Notes: a model not told the origin generated them from the sequence alone. A stretch of DNA of 64,000 nt from an uncultured Desulfarculaceae bacterium (GCA_964514105.1 CAZEPJ010000001.1:34448-98447); one strand, 5' to 3'. Positions 22,019-32,588 are shown, counted from the first letter of the stretch. Numbers and translations: made by a program.

Positions 22019-23116
22019 CTAGGCCAGGGACTCCAAGAAGGACTGAATCCGCACGTTGAGCTGCTCCATGGAGCTAGGGTTGTCCTCGGCCTCCAGCTTG
22101 AGATGGCGCACGCCCCAGGCATCGAAGCGCTCCTTGAGGATGGCGTACTCCATGGCGAAGGCATCGCAGTATAGCTGGATCAGATAGATCAACCCAGCGG
22201 CGCCACTTCGCGCCATGGCCTCCCGGATCCCCACGGCGCGCTCCTCGAACGCGTACATTCCGGGCGCCGGTACCCGCCGCAGATAGCCCCGGGCCAGGGC
22301 CCGGAAGGGGTCCCCGTCCGTATCGATGGGCGTCGAGCCATACCTCGCGTTGTGGGCGAAGTCGTCTGCCACCACCGAGGCCCCGTACTTCTCGGCCGTG
22401 CGGATCACGTCCAGGGCCATGTGGAGGTGGATGGCGCTCAGCATGAGCCGTGGGGATTCGTTCCTGGAGGGGAGGGGCTGCGCGGCATCCAGCAAGCGCC
22501 GCATGGCCGCGTTGTGCGCCTCCACGGGCATGACCAGGGCGGCCCCGAATGCGTAGAGTGCCTCCTGAGCCGAGATCCGACCGGCGGCCCGAGCTTCGGC
22601 CAGTTGGCGGAAACAGGCCCGATTGTCGTTGTACAAGGCGATGGACGCCCGCAGGCCCTCTTCCGTGACGGAGTTTCCCGAGAGCCGCGACAGGGCTCCG
22701 GCCAGGCGCCGCATCTCCTCGGTGAAATAGCCCAGGGCCGCATCGCCAGCCGTGGTGGGTGTCCTCACCAGCCAGAGATGGGGGAAGAGCTTGCGGTGGG
22801 CCCAGATGTCGAAGACGTGGCGGTTGGTGTCGCACACCGTGGCCACCATTACCCCATCCACGTAGTCGTACACCCCGCTGTACAACTGCCCGGCCAGGTT
22901 CTTGCTCATGCCGCACAGGTAAGGCAGGAGCTGGGAGCGCTCGTCGTATGCGGGGTTGCGTTCCTCCACCAACTGGACGGGAAGCATCCCGGCCGCATGA
23001 ATCAACTCCTTGGGGACCAGCCCGTAGAAGCAGGCGACGACCTTGCGCCCCCCTTCATGGATCTCCCGGCACCGCTGGTGCCTGTCCAGGAACCATTCCT
23101 TGAACTGGGATGTCAC
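22019..23116 (-). CDS. 2-hydroxyacyl-CoA dehydratase / benzoyl-CoA reductase BcrBC-type (HGD-D family) subunit
   Basis: GTG start preceded by GGAGG. HgdA/HgdB-like fold with conserved Cys clusters (VVACFYG..., VATVCDTNRH). The table ORF N-terminal 147 aa are spurious. Confidence 0.65.
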   Translation of the reverse strand: MTSQFKEWFLDRHQRCREIHEGGRKVVACFYGLVPKELIHAAGMLPVQLVEERNPAYDERSQLLPYLCGMSKNLAGQLYSGVYDYVDGVMVATVCDTNRHVFDIWAHRKLFPHLWLVRTPTTAGDAALGYFTEEMRRLAGALSRLSGNSVTEEGLRASIALYNDNRACFRQLAEARAAGRISAQEALYAFGAALVMPVEAHNAAMRRLLDAAQPLPSRNESPRLMLSAIHLHMALDVIRTAEKYGASVVADDFAHNARYGSTPIDTDGDPFRALARGYLRRVPAPGMYAFEERAVGIREAMARSGAAGLIYLIQLYCDAFAMEYAILKERFDAWGVRHLKLEAEDNPSSMEQLNVRIQSFLESLA

Positions 23117-24372
23117 GGACGGCCTCCTTCCTGCTTCCTGCGCCGCTCCAGGATCTCCACAAAACCGTCGATCTTGTTCTTGGCGTCCTGCATGTTGAAT
23201 CCCTCGGCATCGGCCTGATCTCCCTCGAAGATGAGCACCGGCAGGCCGTGCTTCTCCCGGATCATCTGGACCACCTCGTCCTGCCCGATGGACTGGGGAC
23301 GGCAGCTCCGGTTGGAAAACATGACCAGGCCATCCACCTCGTACTCCCCAATGGCGCGGTCGAAGTACTCGAATCGTCGCGCAATGGGCATGTTGGTCAG
23401 GACGTTGGTGTACTTCTCGGCCAGGGTCTGGAACGGCCTTTCGGGATCGAGCCTGCCCGACCGGGTCTTGTTCCCCCAGCTCAGGGCCGTGTAAGGTTCC
23501 CAGACGAAGTTGGCCCCTTTCTCCTCGAAGTACGTGATCACCTGGAGGTGGTGCCAAATGGGGATCCCGTTCCAGATGAGGCGGAAGCGCTCCCCGCCCT
23601 GGGCCGGAGTCTTGCCCTGCTGCGCCTCCTCCTCGTACCGCCGCCGCAGGGCCTGATAGAAGTCCGCACAGTCCTTCTCCCCCAGTGCGGTCACCAGGGG
23701 GAGGATCTCCCCGGCGAAGTTCCGGAAGCTCACGGGCGAGGGCCTTCGCTTGCGCAGCTCCAGGATCGCCTTCCAGTGAACTCCCGCGAGGTCCGACTGG
23801 CGCACCGCCTCCCGGAGTCTCTCCAGGTCAAAAACACGGTTGGTGTGCCTTTCGATGAAACGGACCATCTCGTGGATCTGTGTCTCGTAGTAGGCCACGT
23901 AGCCGGGATCCCATGGATCATCGGTGGCGGGCATGTCCACGAAGAAGGTGGGTTTCTTGAAGCGGTCTTCCAGATAGGCCCACCAGGTGACGTGGAGGCA
24001 GCAGATGCTCACGTCGGTCATGAAGAGATCGGGCTCGGGTATGGGGCCGAAGGCCGACTTGTTGGTCCAGGCGATGCCCAGCCCGCAGCGGGTGTACGAA
24101 CAGACGGAATTGGAGAAACCGCGGTCCCGGGCGGCGTCGAAGAACTCGTCGGCCTTGCGGATCCCCGCGGCCACCGCGGCCAGGCTCTCGGGAAACACCG
24201 GGTACACGTCCATGGCATAGAGGACCTCGATGGGCACCGCCGCACTGGCCACACAGATGGGCTGCCCAGCCTCGTGGGCGGCGAGCATCCTGCGATAGGA
24301 CGCCCCGGCGCTGAGCTTCTTCAGCATGGTCCTCAGGTCGACCGGTTCCCCAACGCTTTCCGCTTGATTCAT
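23113..24372 (-). CDS. 2-hydroxyacyl-CoA dehydratase / BcrBC-type (HGD-D family) subunit, partner of the downstream gene
   Basis: Internal ATG (MNQAESVGEPVDLRTMLKK) preceded by GGAGGG. It is an HGD-D family protein, and its stop overlaps the start of the next subunit (23113-23116). Confidence 0.65.
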   Translation of the reverse strand: MNQAESVGEPVDLRTMLKKLSAGASYRRMLAAHEAGQPICVASAAVPIEVLYAMDVYPVFPESLAAVAAGIRKADEFFDAARDRGFSNSVCSYTRCGLGIAWTNKSAFGPIPEPDLFMTDVSICCLHVTWWAYLEDRFKKPTFFVDMPATDDPWDPGYVAYYETQIHEMVRFIERHTNRVFDLERLREAVRQSDLAGVHWKAILELRKRRPSPVSFRNFAGEILPLVTALGEKDCADFYQALRRRYEEEAQQGKTPAQGGERFRLIWNGIPIWHHLQVITYFEEKGANFVWEPYTALSWGNKTRSGRLDPERPFQTLAEKYTNVLTNMPIARRFEYFDRAIGEYEVDGLVMFSNRSCRPQSIGQDEVVQMIREKHGLPVLIFEGDQADAEGFNMQDAKNKIDGFVEILERRRKQEGGRP

Positions 24373-24513: not shown

Positions 24514-25782
24514 ATGCCGTTGACAGCGACCCCGGAATTGTGGAAAGCTCTCTGTGCCGGTTCCAACGATGGGGTCAGAAGGGTTCGGCCATCCGTGTAC
24601 CTCACCTCCTTCATCCACCGAGAGACCCTGTTCGAGATCACCCAGCGGTGGCTTTGCGGCCGCTTGGAACCGGACGACGCCCGACGGATCACGGAGATCC
24701 TCATCTGCGATGGTTTCGTCCTGGGCGAGGTCCTGGGGGACGTGGCCAAATCCCTGCTGGGCATGGTCCATCAAGGGAGCCTCCACGCCCGGAACATCCG
24801 GCTCAAGGGGGAGATGCGGGATGCCATCTGCCAAACCGGCTGCGGGGGCGTCCCCCGGGTCTCTCAACTGATCCGGCGCTATCGGGAGAAGCCCGACTTC
24901 TTTTACCGGGAGGCCCCCATCAACGGGGTCATGTACCTCAACCATGGCCAGCGGCTTGTGGGTCTGCACCGTGTGAAGAGGCCCCGCAGAATCGCCGAGA
25001 AGGCCAACCGGTATCTTGCCAACTGGATCTTCGGGATGGTCCAGGACAGGGCCCGAGGGCTGGCCACGGCCCGGGCCCGGGCATTTGGGATCCCCGTGGA
25101 GGACCTGCTGACCTCCGCGGAGGACATGGCACGGGAATTCATTCAGGCCGAGGAGGCCATCACGGAGGGCTTCCGCCAGGGGGCCATCGGGCTCGATCGC
25201 ACGGCCCTGACCATTCATGACGTGGGAGGGGTGAAGGTGGTGGCCGAACCGGAGGGGCTCCATGCCTTGGAGGAACGACTGTCGGCGCATCCCATCTATG
25301 GGGTGCGGGGGCGGGAGAGCCACCGCGGCGACTACCAGGCCACGAGCCTGATCCTGGAGGTCCCGTGGGACCGGCAGTCCGTGTGCCGGAAGTTCACGGC
25401 GTGCCGATGCTGGGAGCGCTATCGAAACCGGGGGATCCCTGATGAGGATCTGGATCGGGGCCTGGAGCCCTTGCTGGGAGACGCAGCGCCCACGGTGAAC
25501 ATCGAGGTGATCCTGTCCACCTTTGCGGATATGGTGGAGTCGGAGCTGGGGAACAGCATCCATGAGGAGCGGATCCTCTCCCAGAGGGACACCCGGGTGT
25601 ACCGCGGTTACATCCCCACCAACGTGGAGTTCCTGGTCGAGTACCTCTTCGCGGTGGGATTCAGCCCGACGGCGCAGGTGGACGAACTTCCCATCAAGCT
25701 GTGGGGCCGATACCTGCCGGACACGGTCATCTCGCAGATCCGACACCTCCATGGGGTGCCCGAATCGGAGATTCTCTGCTGA
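24514..25782 (+). CDS. RelA/SpoT-domain (RSD) nucleotidyltransferase with an N-terminal domain of unknown function
   Basis: Ordered RSD synthetase motifs: RVKRPRRIAEK (G/RxKxxxSIxxK-like), HDVGGVKVV (DxxGxRI-like), GDYQATSLILEV (GYQSLHT-like), and EVILSTFADMVESELGNSIHE (EVQIRT...MH..AE.G-like). 422 aa. Confidence 0.5.
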   Translation: MPLTATPELWKALCAGSNDGVRRVRPSVYLTSFIHRETLFEITQRWLCGRLEPDDARRITEILICDGFVLGEVLGDVAKSLLGMVHQGSLHARNIRLKGEMRDAICQTGCGGVPRVSQLIRRYREKPDFFYREAPINGVMYLNHGQRLVGLHRVKRPRRIAEKANRYLANWIFGMVQDRARGLATARARAFGIPVEDLLTSAEDMAREFIQAEEAITEGFRQGAIGLDRTALTIHDVGGVKVVAEPEGLHALEERLSAHPIYGVRGRESHRGDYQATSLILEVPWDRQSVCRKFTACRCWERYRNRGIPDEDLDRGLEPLLGDAAPTVNIEVILSTFADMVESELGNSIHEERILSQRDTRVYRGYIPTNVEFLVEYLFAVGFSPTAQVDELPIKLWGRYLPDTVISQIRHLHGVPESEILC

Positions 25783-25882
25783 CCGCAGCGGCGGGTGGCA
25801 GCCCGGAGCCCGGGTCGCTCCGATTGAGATGGGCGCGGATCGGGGCTATCCTCTTGAAATGGGTGGGACCGGGAGGAGACCT

Positions 25883-27397
25883 GTGGCGGGGCAAGGGAAG
25901 GCAGAGGGCGGCGATGCCCACGGCAGGGGTGGCCGCCGTCGGCGCCGGAAACGGGTTGGGGCGCGCGGGGGCGGGGCAGACCTGCAGGACGTCGAGCGGC
26001 TCATTGCCGAGGCGGTCCGGAAGAGCTTCGGCGAGGCCTTCGGCTTTGGGCAGGCTCTGTCCAGGCCGGTGCCGCTGCGGCTGGACATGGTGGTCGAGCC
26101 GGGGCCCCACTGGCGGCTCCGTGCCGACCCGCCGTTGAGCCAGCAGATCCTGGCGGCGGTGCGGGAGACGGGAGCCCGGGCCGAGGCCCATCGCAGGGGT
26201 CGGGTGTATTGCTATCGGTGCGAGAGCGCCGAGTGCCTCCACAGCCTGCCCCCCACGCCGACGGCCGTCTTCGGCGGGTATACCCCCACGGGGCTTCCCC
26301 GCTGGCCGGAGCTGACCCAACTGCTCCTGGACTTGAGGCACCCGGGGGTCGATCTGCTGTTCGAGGCACAGGGCTTGGCCTGGGTGGCGGCCTGCATGGG
26401 CCCCGAGCGCCTCAAGTCCGCCCAGCTGGACGTGTTCGGGCGCAGCTCCAAGGCGTATGACATCCTGGGACAGGTGGTGGTGGGGTTTCTCCGGGCGCGG
26501 GATCCGGAGCCAACACGGGACGACACCGGGCGGGTCGCCCTCACCATCCAGGCGGTGGAATCGCGCCGCCTGGATGGCTCACCCAGACTGGATCTCAACA
26601 TCCTGGGGCCGCCGGGGGGCGGCGCTTCCCCCCTGGGGATCCTCCACCACGGCCCGCACCACGGCCGCGTGGCAGATCTCATCGCCCAGGCCAGCCGGCG
26701 GATCCAGCAACTGGCCCCCCAGCCTCCCCGGGGGGGTGGAGTCCGGGAGGGCAAAGGGATGCCGTCCGTGGTGGCAGAGCGGGCTCTGGGCGTCCTGAGG
26801 GAACTTGCCCGAGGGTTGGAGCGCATCGGGAGGCAGAGCGGGAGGCGGACGGCCCACGTGGTGAGGGAACGGCGGGGGGATCAACGACCCACTTCCAAGG
26901 CCCGGGACGACGCGGAGGCCGCCACCGAAGAGCGAGTGCTGTGGGATGAACGCCGGGGCACGTTCATCGTCCTGGGCCCGAGGAACCGCGTGCATGTCTT
27001 CAGCCCCCAGGGGCGGCATGTGACCAGCCTCCTTCTGGAGGGCGATGCGGTGGAGGGCCGGCTGCGCCGCCGGCGCTGGCGCAGGCTCAAGGGCCAGGCC
27101 GTGGAGCAATTCAGGGCGGCCCTGGCTCGCGGGGAGGAGGGGGGCCGGCCCGGTCCGAGGGTGACCCACGGGAGGGGGGGCACGGGAGGCGATGGCACCC
27201 GAGTCACCCATGGGGAGGGAGAGGGGCATGCGGAGTCGAGAGGCGGGCAGGGTGAACCACCGGATCTGGTACCTGGGCCGGGAGGAGTCGGGGGTCTATC
27301 TGGTGGAAGGGCGGGAGGGGTCCATGATCCTCAACGGAGGCATGAGCTACATCGTCCCCGACGTTCTGGGTCAAATGGCGGAGTTCGGCATCGATGA
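25883..27397 (+). CDS. Hypothetical protein co-oriented with the RSD gene; both ends uncertain
   Basis: GC3-rich frame with plausible protein sequence (DLQDVERLIAEAVRKSFGEAFGFGQALSRPVPLRL..., CYRCESAEC). A GGGAGGAG RBS precedes an in-frame GTG at 25883. The frame has no stop until 27397, overlapping the MBL gene by about 170 nt with a low-complexity tail, so the true C-terminus may differ or there is a frameshift. Confidence 0.3.
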   Translation: MAGQGKAEGGDAHGRGGRRRRRKRVGARGGGADLQDVERLIAEAVRKSFGEAFGFGQALSRPVPLRLDMVVEPGPHWRLRADPPLSQQILAAVRETGARAEAHRRGRVYCYRCESAECLHSLPPTPTAVFGGYTPTGLPRWPELTQLLLDLRHPGVDLLFEAQGLAWVAACMGPERLKSAQLDVFGRSSKAYDILGQVVVGFLRARDPEPTRDDTGRVALTIQAVESRRLDGSPRLDLNILGPPGGGASPLGILHHGPHHGRVADLIAQASRRIQQLAPQPPRGGGVREGKGMPSVVAERALGVLRELARGLERIGRQSGRRTAHVVRERRGDQRPTSKARDDAEAATEERVLWDERRGTFIVLGPRNRVHVFSPQGRHVTSLLLEGDAVEGRLRRRRWRRLKGQAVEQFRAALARGEEGGRPGPRVTHGRGGTGGDGTRVTHGEGEGHAESRGGQGEPPDLVPGPGGVGGLSGGRAGGVHDPQRRHELHRPRRSGSNGGVRHR

Positions 27398-28127
27398 GGG
27401 GACCATCCGATGGCTGACCGTGCTGCACGCCCACTTCGACCACGTGGGGGTGGTCCCGTTCTTCAAACGGAGGCTTCCGGAGGTCAAGGTCCTGGCCTCG
27501 GCTCGGGCTTGGGAGCTGTTGGAATCGCCCAAGGTTGTGGACACGGTCAATTCCTTCAGCGCCGTGGTGGCGCAGCGCATGGGCCGAGCCCCAGCGTGCG
27601 CCGGCCTCGATCTGGCGTGGCGGGACGACGTGAGAGGGGCAGCCGTGGGAGAGGGAGATGAAATCAGCCTGGGCGACCTGACGGTGCGCTTTCTGGAGAC
27701 GCCTGGCCATTCCTCGTGCTCCATCTCGGCGTACGTGCCCGAGCTGCGGGCCCTGTTCCCATCGGATGGCGGAGGCATCCCGTACAGAGACACCATCATC
27801 ACTTCCGGCAATTCCGACTACACCCAGTTCCAGCGCAGCCTGGAGCGTCTGGCGGGCCTTCCGGTGGATTATTACTGCGCGGACCACTACGGATTTGTGA
27901 CCGGGGAGGAGGCCGGTGCCTTCGCCCGACGGGCAGCCGACGTGGCGGCCAAGTGGCGAGGGTTCATGGAGGGGGTGTACCGGAGGACCCGGGATGTGGA
28001 TGAGTCCGCCAGGAAGCTCACCGCGGCCTTCTACCATGAGAACCCCGACTATATCCTGTCGCCAGAGATCTTCGAAGGGGTGTTCCGCCAGATGGTGCGG
28101 CACATCGCCAGGGGTCTGGAGGCGTGA
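27228..28127 (+). CDS. Metallo-beta-lactamase-fold hydrolase
   Basis: The HAHFDHVG (HxHxDH) motif follows the beta-strands YLVEG....MILNGG. GGGGAGGGAGAGGGG lies upstream of the ATG at 27228. Confidence 0.7.
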   Translation: MRSREAGRVNHRIWYLGREESGVYLVEGREGSMILNGGMSYIVPDVLGQMAEFGIDEGTIRWLTVLHAHFDHVGVVPFFKRRLPEVKVLASARAWELLESPKVVDTVNSFSAVVAQRMGRAPACAGLDLAWRDDVRGAAVGEGDEISLGDLTVRFLETPGHSSCSISAYVPELRALFPSDGGGIPYRDTIITSGNSDYTQFQRSLERLAGLPVDYYCADHYGFVTGEEAGAFARRAADVAAKWRGFMEGVYRRTRDVDESARKLTAAFYHENPDYILSPEIFEGVFRQMVRHIARGLEA

Positions 28128-28169
28128 AGCGGGCGCCCCCGGGGGGGGTCCTGAACGGAAAGGAGGCCG

Positions 28170-28679
28170 ATGACCATGAACGGACACAGAAGGGCGAGGA
28201 TGGAGATTCCGGAGTACGTGACCGTGGGCGAGGTGAGGCGGATCTGCCGCATGTTGGGGATCCGGGACTGGACCAGGCTGAAGCAGCCCCGGGTGACCGC
28301 GCAGGAGGCCAAGGCGATTCTGGCCGCGGTGGGAACCGGAGGGATGAAGGTCGATCTGGAGGAGTTCCGCATCGGGCTGGAGGTGGAGCTGGAGCACGGC
28401 ACGCGATTTCCCGAAGCCAACGTGACCAACAACCATCCGCTTCTGACGGGCAAGATCGTCCTGGCCCATTTCAAGGAGACCTTGGATTACTACAAGCGGC
28501 TGGAGGTGGCGGAGATCGAAGGAGATCTGCTCAAGGCCTCGGCGAGAGAGGACGCGGCCAAGGTGCAGCGCCTGTACCAAAAGCTCATCTGCGCGCGCCG
28601 GGCCCTGAGCACGGCGGAGGTGTGGCAGTTGTCCCGAAAACCGCGTGCCCCCCTTGACAAGGCCGGATCGGGTTCTTAA
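28170..28679 (+). CDS. Small conserved hypothetical protein (possibly DUF5661-like)
   Basis: 169 aa. The motif GLEVELEHG...[28 protein letters not shown] was recalled only as resembling a DUF family; there are no catalytic signatures. Confidence 0.4.
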
Positions 28680-28791
28680 TTACTTTCTGTTTCCATTGCC
28701 CAGGAAAGAGCCGAGAAGGCCGAGGGACCGGCCCCGGACCTGGGCGGCTTGCGGTTTCACGGAGGGGAGTTCCCCTGAGGAAGGGCGGGGA

Positions 28792-28858: not shown

Positions 28859-30821
<1,963 letters not shown>

Positions 30822-30831
30822 GGCCCTTTCC

Positions 30832-30862
30832 GAGGGAGAGGGGTTGCCCCTCTCCCTTTTTT
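30832..30862 (+). terminator. Rho-independent terminator of groESL
   Basis: GGAGAGGGG-ttg-CCCCTCTCC is a 9-11-bp stem followed by TTTTTT, 12 nt after the groEL stop. Confidence 0.7.
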
Positions 30863-30938
30863 GTCCAAGGACCCGCCCTTGAGATCGAAGGAGCCGGGAC
30901 AAGCGGCCGGGGCCCCGGAGACGATCCGGGTTTCAGGC

Positions 30939-32588
30939 ATGTCGGAATCCATCCTTCAGTCCTCGTATGCCCGCACCGGCAAAGAGCTGCTGGCGGAGAT
31001 CCTGGAAAATGGCAATGCGGGGGAACTGGTGCGGGGGCTTCCCCACGGGGATTTCTACTGGCTGATTCAGCGCATCGGACCCGACGACGCCCTGCCCGTC
31101 CTGGAGATGGCCTCCGCCGAACAATGGGAGTACCTCCTGGACCTGGAGCTTTGGCGAAAGGATCGCCTGGATCCGGTGCGGATCTCGTCATGGCTCAGGC
31201 GTCTGCTGGAGGCAAACCCCGACCAGTTGGCCGAGTGGATCCTGGCCGACGGAGAAGGATTGGCCCTGCATTATCTGCAGGGGTGTGTGGAGGTGGCGGT
31301 CCACGAGACGGAGGAGATGTACGGCCTTCCCGAGGGCTACTTCACCCTGGACAACGTCTTCTTCGTTCGAGTGACCAAGCCCAGGTACCGCAAACTCGTC
31401 GAGCGCCTGCTTCGCGCCGTCGCCTCCGCCGACTTGGCGCACTACCAGAACCTCCTCCTCGCTCTGGCGAGCGTCGTTCCCGCGCAATCCGAGGAGGAGC
31501 TGTACCGCCGCCGCACCGCTCGCCTGTCCGAGCACGGGTTCCTGCCATTCGAGGACGCGGTGTCCGTCTATGCCCCCCTGGACATCGAGGCGCTGCGGGG
31601 GGAGGGTCCCTCGACGGCCCTGGATCCTGCCCTGGAGCCTGAAGAGATCCAGGCCCTGGTCCCGGCCACGCCGTTGCGCCTGGCCGCGGCGGGCAGTCCC
31701 CTGGCAAGGGCTGGCTCCCAGATCACGGATCCAATGGTCATGGAGCGGCTGCGACTGGAATTCGCGGTCCTGTGCAATCAGCTCGTGGCCGCCGATGGGC
31801 TCCTGTCTCTCGACGTGGAGACGCTGCGGGGGGCCTGGGAGAAGGGCGCGGGGTACGTGGGCATGGCCCTGGAGGAACTGTGCGGCGAGGACGTCGGTGC
31901 CATGGTCCGTGTGCTGGCGCGCCGCCCCCTGAACCATCTGTTCCGGGCGGGGGTCGGCCTGGTGACGGCCGCCGCATGGGAGACCCAGCGGTGGTTCCGG
32001 CAGAGCTGGTTCCGGCGTATGGGGCTGGATGCGGGCTTTTGGGGGGAGGTGTGGGGCGGGACCCTCTCGGGGATGCTCAGGCGGCGGCCGAAGCGCTACA
32101 CGGGATCAGCGGGGGAGGGGGGATACGGGGAGTTCGAGCGGTTGTGCCAGCTTCACGAAGCCCGGGAGGTGTTGGGCAAGATCCGGGCCCTGGATGCCCT
32201 TCTGGAGCGCATGGCGGGGCTCTATCCGCCGGGACCGGATCCGTCCCGTCTCCAGGGGCGGACCTTTCACGTATGGCTCTTCCACCCGTGGGCACGAAGT
32301 GTTGTGGGGCTCGATCCGGGTTTCGCCCCCCTCTCGCCGGGTCAGGCCGGGCGCTTCCTCCGTCTTCTCAGGGTCGGGGAGGGAAGGGCCCCGTACCGAA
32401 TGCCGGGATGGGCGGAACGGTTCGTGGGGGCGTTCCTGGATGCCGCGCCGCACATCACCGGCGGCGAGAGGGAACGTCTCAGGAAGGCCCTGGAGGCGGC
32501 CTGGCGAGAGGTACAGGAGGAATACGAGTGGATCCCGGCGGGCGACCTGGACCCCCGCTACATGCGCTTCCTGCTCCTGGAGGCGTAG
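30939..32588 (+). CDS. Hypothetical protein (about 550 aa)
   Basis: Long GC3-rich ORF with no recognised catalytic motif. The table start at 30861 lies inside the groESL terminator T-run, so the next in-frame ATG at 30939 (MSESILQSSY...) is preferred. Confidence 0.45.
   Translation: MSESILQSSYARTGKELLAEILENGNAGELVRGLPHGDFYWLIQRIGPDDALPVLEMASAEQWEYLLDLELWRKDRLDPVRISSWLRRLLEANPDQLAEWILADGEGLALHYLQGCVEVAVHETEEMYGLPEGYFTLDNVFFVRVTKPRYRKLVERLLRAVASADLAHYQNLLLALASVVPAQSEEELYRRRTARLSEHGFLPFEDAVSVYAPLDIEALRGEGPSTALDPALEPEEIQALVPATPLRLAAAGSPLARAGSQITDPMVMERLRLEFAVLCNQLVAADGLLSLDVETLRGAWEKGAGYVGMALEELCGEDVGAMVRVLARRPLNHLFRAGVGLVTAAAWETQRWFRQSWFRRMGLDAGFWGEVWGGTLSGMLRRRPKRYTGSAGEGGYGEFERLCQLHEAREVLGKIRALDALLERMAGLYPPGPDPSRLQGRTFHVWLFHPWARSVVGLDPGFAPLSPGQAGRFLRLLRVGEGRAPYRMPGWAERFVGAFLDAAPHITGGERERLRKALEAAWREVQEEYEWIPAGDLDPRYMRFLLLEA

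Follow-up and report, generated by a model that had tools for sequence, protein, structure and literature searches.

A divergent RelA/SpoT-type synthetase fold predicted for g1, a member of a conserved, stand-alone protein family, encoded upstream of groESL in an uncultured Desulfarculaceae bacterium

The stretch of DNA analyzed here, which we refer to as the window, comprises 64,000 nt from an uncultured Desulfarculaceae bacterium (GCA_964514105.1 CAZEPJ010000001.1:34448-98447); all coordinates are positions within it, and the region studied spans 24514-28679. ORF (open reading frame) calling and translation revealed six co-oriented genes on the + strand between 24.5 and 30.8 kb, beginning with g1 (24514-25782), which encodes a divergent protein predicted to harbor the fold of RelA/SpoT-type synthetases (RSD). 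This gene is followed by orf2 (25829-27397, +), encoding a conserved 522-aa protein of unassigned fold that contains CYRCESAECLHS, by the gene of a PqsE-like hydrolase with a metallo-beta-lactamase (MBL) fold (27228-28127, with an alternative start at 27192, +; Pfam Lactamase_B E 3e-15), by that of a DUF5661 protein (28170-28679, +; Pfam PF18905 E 1.6e-10) and finally by groES and groEL. The spacing between g1 and orf2 is 47 nt and that between the MBL and DUF5661 genes is 43 nt, while the 3' end of orf2 overlaps the MBL gene. A first-pass annotation, made from the sequence alone, had described these genes, including the HAHFDH motif in the MBL translation, and all of them indeed exist on the + strand; it had further read g1, orf2, MBL and DUF5661 as a single module, either an alarmone-type synthetase paired with a hydrolase or a toxin with its neutralizer. 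As detailed below, the call on the fold was right and the call on the module was wrong, the arrangement in the window being a local accident of gene order.

Translated from its first ATG, g1 yields a protein of 422 aa. Because its homologs are ~395 aa long and begin with MYLTSF, the GTG at 24595 is the likelier start, and the true protein probably comprises 395 residues. A profile search of 1.84 billion representative proteins (E<=1e-3) gathered no more than 225 clusters (50% identity), which share one architecture of ~395 aa, and found no bridge from this family to canonical RelA/SpoT homologs (RSHs). Members from different orders and phyla are 52-68% identical and keep the same length; a full-text literature search found no description of such proteins. 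Compact and strongly conserved, this family of ~395-aa proteins has so far gone without annotation.

Two family-specific insertions interrupt the core of g1: the first, a helical hairpin ~50 aa long, separates the beta1/alpha donor motif from beta2, and the second, of ~35 aa, separates beta4 from beta5. The core is flanked by an N-terminal region of ~100 aa and a very conserved C-terminal region of ~75 aa. The N-terminal extension had been recognized in the first-pass annotation, albeit as a domain of 130 aa, a length that shrinks to ~100 aa if the GTG is used. Residue conservation was assessed across 123 family sequences in the 395-aa numbering, and the motifs that follow are all on the + strand. 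The donor motif expected to bind the ATP triphosphate, R-V-K-R-P-R-R-I-A-E-K-A-N-R (24970-25011; residues 153-166 of the 422-aa form), sits at the end of beta1 and the start of the next helix, with R126 conserved at 99%, K128 at 100%, R132 at 100%, K136 at 99% and R139 at 98%; in the hhalign comparison, R126-x-K128-x3-R132-I-x2-K136-x2-R139 aligns with gRxKxxxSIxxK of RSD enzymes, the Ser being replaced by Arg. The beta2 motif D-V-G-G-V-K (25219-25236), which aligns with IHDIAGVRII of YwaC by hmmsearch and with the RSD profile by hhalign, comprises the predicted catalytic, Mg2+-binding Asp D209 (100%), G212 (85%, with Ala in 15%) and K214 (98%). Next is the G-loop G-D-Y-Q-A-T-S-L (25327-25350), in which G245 is conserved at 98% and Y247, the putative acceptor-base-stacking Tyr by hhalign and hmmsearch alignment, at 93% with Phe in another 5%; the His of the canonical GYxSxH corresponds to position 251, occupied by Ser (48%) or Asn (44%) in the family. 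The first-pass annotation had described this motif as GYQ-like; its exact form is G-x-Y-Q. In beta5, N-I-E-V-I-L-S-T (25498-25521), E304 (98%, with Asp in 2%) would correspond to the Glu of ExQxRT as judged by hhalign without the insertions, whereas the Gln of that motif has become Ile (89%) and the Arg has become Ser, Thr or Ala (Ser in the g1 of the window).

Two further segments are peculiar to the family. The helix after beta5, E-S-E-L-G-N-S-I-H-E-E-R (25537-25572), follows the pattern E-S-E-x-G-x3-H-E-x-R, in which E315, S316, E317, G319, H323, E324 and R326 are conserved at 97-100%. The C-terminal ~75 aa (25519-25782; residues 336-422 of the 422-aa form) rank with the best conserved segments of the family, with the consensus Y-x-G-Y-I-P-x-N-V-E ... 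L-P-I-K-L-W-G-R-Y-L-P-D; the Y-x-G-Y element (Y336 93%, Y339 67%) is found in 67% of members, within a region that is poorly modelled.

Comparisons of profiles and structures point to the same fold. While a phmmer search of PDB sequences with g1 returned noise only, the family profile yielded YwaC as the top match among PDB sequences (E 3.4e-4), with I-x-D-V-x-G-I-K-V-I aligned on IHDIAGVRII and G-x-Y-N-A-T-N-L on NGYRSLHL. In the reciprocal search of 4442 ORFs from the window and the fetched loci, a YwaC fragment recovered g1 homologs only, with a best E of 1.3e-5. The predicted structure of g1 displays the three-dimensional RSD fold: Foldseek returned 5dec_A as the top match (E 1.4e-3), and in structure comparison RSD enzymes lay at least 3 Z units above all other nucleotidyltransferases (NTases). 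Confidence of the model is moderate, with a poorly modelled C-terminal region (pLDDT, the predicted per-residue confidence score, <50). A local hhalign comparison of the g1 core with an alignment of 11 RSD sequences, taken from annotated SAS (small alarmone synthetase), Rel, RelA and SpoT genes of plasmid and chromid records, gave a probability of 57.5% (P 1e-4); upon deletion of the two insertions (residues 141-190 and 260-293, as defined from the model), this rose to 89.9% (P 1.7e-6), and the four motifs all came into register. From these sequence and model comparisons we conclude that the g1 core has the RSD fold.

The analogy to FaRel2 allows the motifs to be read in functional terms. In that enzyme, R64, K66, S70, K74 and R77 hold the ATP triphosphate and D90 holds Mg2+; G93, R95 and Q147 contact the donor adenine, specificity for adenosine comes from E145, and Y128 forms a stack with the acceptor base (PMC11782079). 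The motifs of g1 are spaced as are R64/K66/S70/K74/R77, D90/G93/R95, Y128 and E145 of FaRel2, with Ser70 replaced by Arg and Gln147, a donor adenine contact, by Ile; compared with canonical RSD enzymes, the His of GYxSxH has given way to Ser or Asn. Judged by this analogy, what has changed in g1 is the surroundings of the acceptor site and one contact to the donor base. The explanation that fits best, and which we consider probable from motif conservation and the model, is that g1 is a stand-alone RSD-fold enzyme, presumably a pyrophosphokinase that depends on ATP and has kept its donor site. The donor-site residues R-x-K-x3-R-x3-K-x2-R, the Asp of D-x2-G-x-K and the beta5 Glu are all kept, as is the putative acceptor-stacking Tyr. 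Because donor site and Tyr appear intact, the enzyme would most likely depend on Mg2+ and move the beta,gamma-pyrophosphate of ATP onto a 3'-OH of an acceptor. We surmise that this acceptor, and perhaps the reading of the donor base, may differ from those of the known (p)ppGpp, (p)ppApp and tRNA enzymes since the canonical His, Gln and Arg residues are changed.

Several observations weigh against this explanation, its fold and stand-alone status included: 1) neither Pfam nor NCBIfam matches g1 at E<=1, and none of 43 diverse family members matches PF04607 RelA_SpoT even at E<=10; 2) our home-made hidden Markov model (HMM) of the 11 RSD sequences misses g1 as well; 3) the hhalign probability of ~90% comes from a guided test, being reached only after removal of insertions chosen from the model; 4) three canonical RSD positions are changed, so that activity is not assured; 5) the linkage counts given below rest on contigs that are nearly all from metagenome-assembled genomes (MAGs) and on 8-kb flanks, linkage over a longer range or in trans being possible. 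The Pfam match expected of an RSD protein is therefore missing, and it is the fold that rescues the assignment. When run on the 4442 ORFs of the window and the fetched loci, the same home-made HMM found no canonical Rel or SAS either.

The replacement of the canonical GYxSxH His and of the ExQxRT Gln and Arg also lends itself to a reading in which g1 has the RSD/NTase fold without being a pyrophosphokinase, whether as a nucleotidyl-transferase of the MenT or GrpB type or as a dead nucleotide-binding regulator. We find this unlikely. Besides the gap in Z units between RSD enzymes and all other NTases, two motifs are invariant, namely the basic donor motif specific to RSD enzymes, exact in its spacing, and the beta2 motif with a single Asp in place of the hG[GS]...DxD of classical NTases. 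A catalytic Asp and Glu that hardly vary also speak against a dead enzyme.

In a scan of 185,579 species-representative genomes, 171 loci encoding g1 came to light; the best 80, all in MAGs, were kept and their flanks examined over up to 8 kb. Among these 80, most belong to Syntrophobacterales, Desulfarculales, Syntrophales, Syntrophorhabdales, Desulfobacterales and Thermodesulfovibrionales, with one in Methylomirabilota; the family resides mainly in Desulfobacterota and Nitrospirota (Thermodesulfovibrionales). One MAG contig, CAWEHK010000033.1, carries two g1 paralogs ~100 kb apart (L041 and L052), whereas the other genomes in the kept set have one locus each. None of these 80 has a homolog of orf2, MBL, DUF5661, groES, groEL, DUF6178 or HGD-D. 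When ORFs of >=80 aa lying up to 4 kb away were clustered without bias, the largest neighbor family covered 12 of the 80; among small adjacent ORFs (>=35 aa, at most 700 nt away) the largest cluster covered 13; and the five g1 contigs that were inspected singly all have different, unrelated housekeeping neighbors. The commonest neighbor is a small PilZ-like ORF, convergent and just 3' of g1 in 12 of the 80 loci (7939-8487 in L030, and 11 others), which probably reflects local synteny within one clade. We conclude that g1 is a stand-alone chromosomal gene, independently placed and with no conserved partner.

These counts bear directly on the proposal that g1 is a toxSAS-like toxin involved in phage defence, neutralized by an adjacent antitoxin or, as in CapRel, by its own C-terminal region. 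The Y-x-G-Y in the C-terminus loosely recalls the YXXY plug with which pZFD antitoxin domains occupy the donor site (PMC11782079) and may hint at autoinhibition. However, the toxin/neutralizer module put forward in the first-pass annotation finds no adjacent ORF recurring in more than 13 of the 80 loci that might serve as neutralizer, and PADLOC returned no matches for any of the four proteins; with no partner gene, g1 does not qualify as a toxSAS module. As for a CapRel-type defence protein, g1 has metabolic and housekeeping genes as neighbors rather than defence islands or prophages, and the uniformity of the family in identity, length and C-terminus is unlike that of fast-evolving defence sensors, so that on grounds of context and sequence alike g1 does not look to be of this type. 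We hold a toxic or defensive g1 to be distinctly improbable.

Also to be weighed is whether the likeness of g1 to RSD enzymes stems from a chance match of motifs on an unrelated fold, as the failure of Pfam and NCBIfam and the moderate confidence of the model might suggest. We deem this very improbable: the ordered RSD motifs that had been pointed out in g1 are real, in register and conserved well beyond chance (93-100% in the 123 members, G212 at 85%).

Least probable of all, and in our opinion hardly tenable, is the four-gene module, in which g1 would be an alarmone-type synthetase, MBL a non-HD, non-Nudix alarmone hydrolase and orf2 and DUF5661 accessory proteins, for which speak the co-orientation and close spacing of the genes, the overlap of orf2 with MBL and a single short metagenome contig (L123) on which an orf2 homolog directly follows a g1 homolog, and against which stand the absence of the other three genes from all 80 g1 loci, the presence of g1 in only that one of 80 orf2 loci, an arrangement in the closest syntenic relatives of HGD-D, orf2 and MBL without g1, and the likeness of MBL to an acyl-CoA thioesterase.

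The orf2 loci, 80 in number, were drawn from metagenomes. An orthologous MBL lies downstream of orf2 in four of the 80, all of them close relatives, and a distant MBL is found on the other strand in five. In the closest syntenic relative, whose HGD-D is 81% identical to that of the window, the order is BcrAD/BadFG x2, HGD-D x2, orf2 and MBL; g1 is missing, there being no room for it between HGD-D and orf2, and different genes follow MBL. The close syntenic relatives with HGD-D directly beside orf2 are L151 (= L011; 4587-8128) and L118 (584-3697). DUF5661 after MBL is seen in the window only. Given that relatives have no g1 between HGD-D and orf2, g1 has been either recently inserted in or lost from this site. 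The order HGD-D pair, g1 and orf2-MBL is lineage-specific in the window, and the four genes are not co-conserved elsewhere; the pairing of synthetase and hydrolase, as proposed in the first-pass annotation, finds no support.

Although passed over by one automatic gene call on an identical contig, orf2 is, as judged from its sequence, a real gene. Scans of its product against Pfam and NCBIfam gave no useful match. It has 86 homologs of ~420-430 aa, third-position GC (GC3) supports coding in its frame over ~25860-27100, and its conserved core extends from ~25960 to ~27135. A putative metal site is provided by the knuckle C-x2-C-x4-C-x-H (CYRCESAECLH; 26210-26242, +), with C84, C87, C92 and H94 invariant in 56 sequences. 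The last ~85 codons (27135-27397) lack conservation and run into the MBL gene for 170-200 nt, with GC3 switching to the MBL frame; this tail could be due to a lost stop codon, read-through or a frameshift in the assembly. Functionally, orf2 is not tied to g1.

The MBL protein scores 57 bits with PF00753 against a cutoff of 22.7. As its scores with all NCBIfam beta-lactamase models are far below their cutoffs, it is not a true beta-lactamase. Its best relatives in the PDB are structures of PqsE/PA1000, a 2-aminobenzoylacetyl-CoA thioesterase, aligned over the full length (residues 6-295 vs. 9-297, E 3.5e-16) and sharing the HxHxDH-type metal motif, but similarity is low, and in place of nearby pqs genes the window MBL has an acyl-CoA context of the HGD-D type. 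In relatives, MBL stays linked to orf2, the HGD-D pair and the BcrAD/BadFG activase genes. Together, the likeness to PqsE and this linkage suggest an acyl-CoA-related cluster rather than nucleotide metabolism, and a role for MBL as thioester hydrolase beside HGD-D is more plausible than alarmone hydrolysis. The HGD-D pair itself (2-hydroxyacyl-CoA dehydratase/benzoyl-CoA-reductase-like; 22019-24372, - strand; gene calls with Pfam HGD-D E 1e-67 and 3e-67 and NCBIfam matches) lies upstream of g1 on the opposite strand and is divergently oriented.

On the other side of the region, groES (28859-29149, +) and groEL (29190-30821, +) were identified by ORF and translation, the name GroEL being taken from the source annotation; directly 3' of groEL is the gene for a 575-aa DUF6178 protein (30861-32588, +; Pfam E 6e-131). 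A gap of 180 nt separates groES from the DUF5661 gene. A sigma-70-like TTGACA-17-TAATTA spans the stop codon of the DUF5661 gene (28654-28682), 180 nt before groES. A search for the CIRCE (HrcA) operator found none, either upstream of groES or elsewhere in the window, and a simple scan for promoters and terminators gave background levels. Thus, groESL is an independent housekeeping chaperonin unit, outside any module with g1.

RelA/SpoT-fold enzymes have repeatedly shown unexpected chemistry, as with the toxins that make (p)ppApp and those that pyrophosphorylate the CCA end of tRNA. The g1 family is strongly conserved, chromosomal and partner-less, with its donor site apparently kept and with changes around the acceptor site and at one contact to the donor base. 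These traits make it a tractable candidate when looking for new RSD activities among anaerobes that live by syntrophy or sulfate reduction. The analysis also does away with a tempting story, that of an alarmone synthetase/MBL hydrolase pair or a toxin-antitoxin module beside groESL. For the RSH superfamily, the standard census (Jimmy et al. 2020) was HMM-based (PMC7229694), and as the g1 family is invisible to Pfam RelA_SpoT, it was probably missed there. We tentatively advance a bolder proposal, itself rather doubtful, that the family comprises housekeeping, non-toxic RSD-fold pyrophosphokinases with a remodelled acceptor site and a product that is neither (p)ppGpp nor (p)ppApp nor pyrophosphorylated tRNA. 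If true, this product would be either a new nucleotide used in signalling or a new mark, a 3'-pyrophosphate, placed on an RNA or a cofactor, and the conserved N- and C-terminal regions would be regulatory or substrate-selecting modules.

Among known systems, g1 would work most like a small alarmone synthetase or a toxSAS-type RSD enzyme, as far as motifs and model can tell. Its RSD fold is supported by the match to YwaC and the register of the motifs, yet, as the first-pass annotation had suggested, it belongs neither with the long RelA/SpoT proteins nor with ordinary small alarmone synthetases. Compared with RelQ/SAS1 and RelP/SAS2 (YjbM and YwaC; PDB 5dec, 6ewz and 6fgk), g1 is about twice as long, has two insertions in the core along with extra N- and C-terminal regions, goes undetected by the Pfam RelA_SpoT HMM, has lost the His of GYxSxH and the Gln and Arg of ExQxRT, and occurs only in anaerobic Desulfobacterota and Nitrospirota, plus a small number of other MAG lineages. 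In contrast to the tRNA-pyrophosphorylating toxSAS enzymes FaRel2 and CapRel SJ46 (PDB 7ztb), g1 comes without an antitoxin gene, a defence-island context or a PADLOC match, and its sequence is highly uniform across taxa. The long Rel, RelA and SpoT enzymes, of ~700-750 aa, differ from the 395-aa g1 in having an HD hydrolase and TGS/ACT-type C-terminal domains, for neither of which g1 shows a Pfam match.

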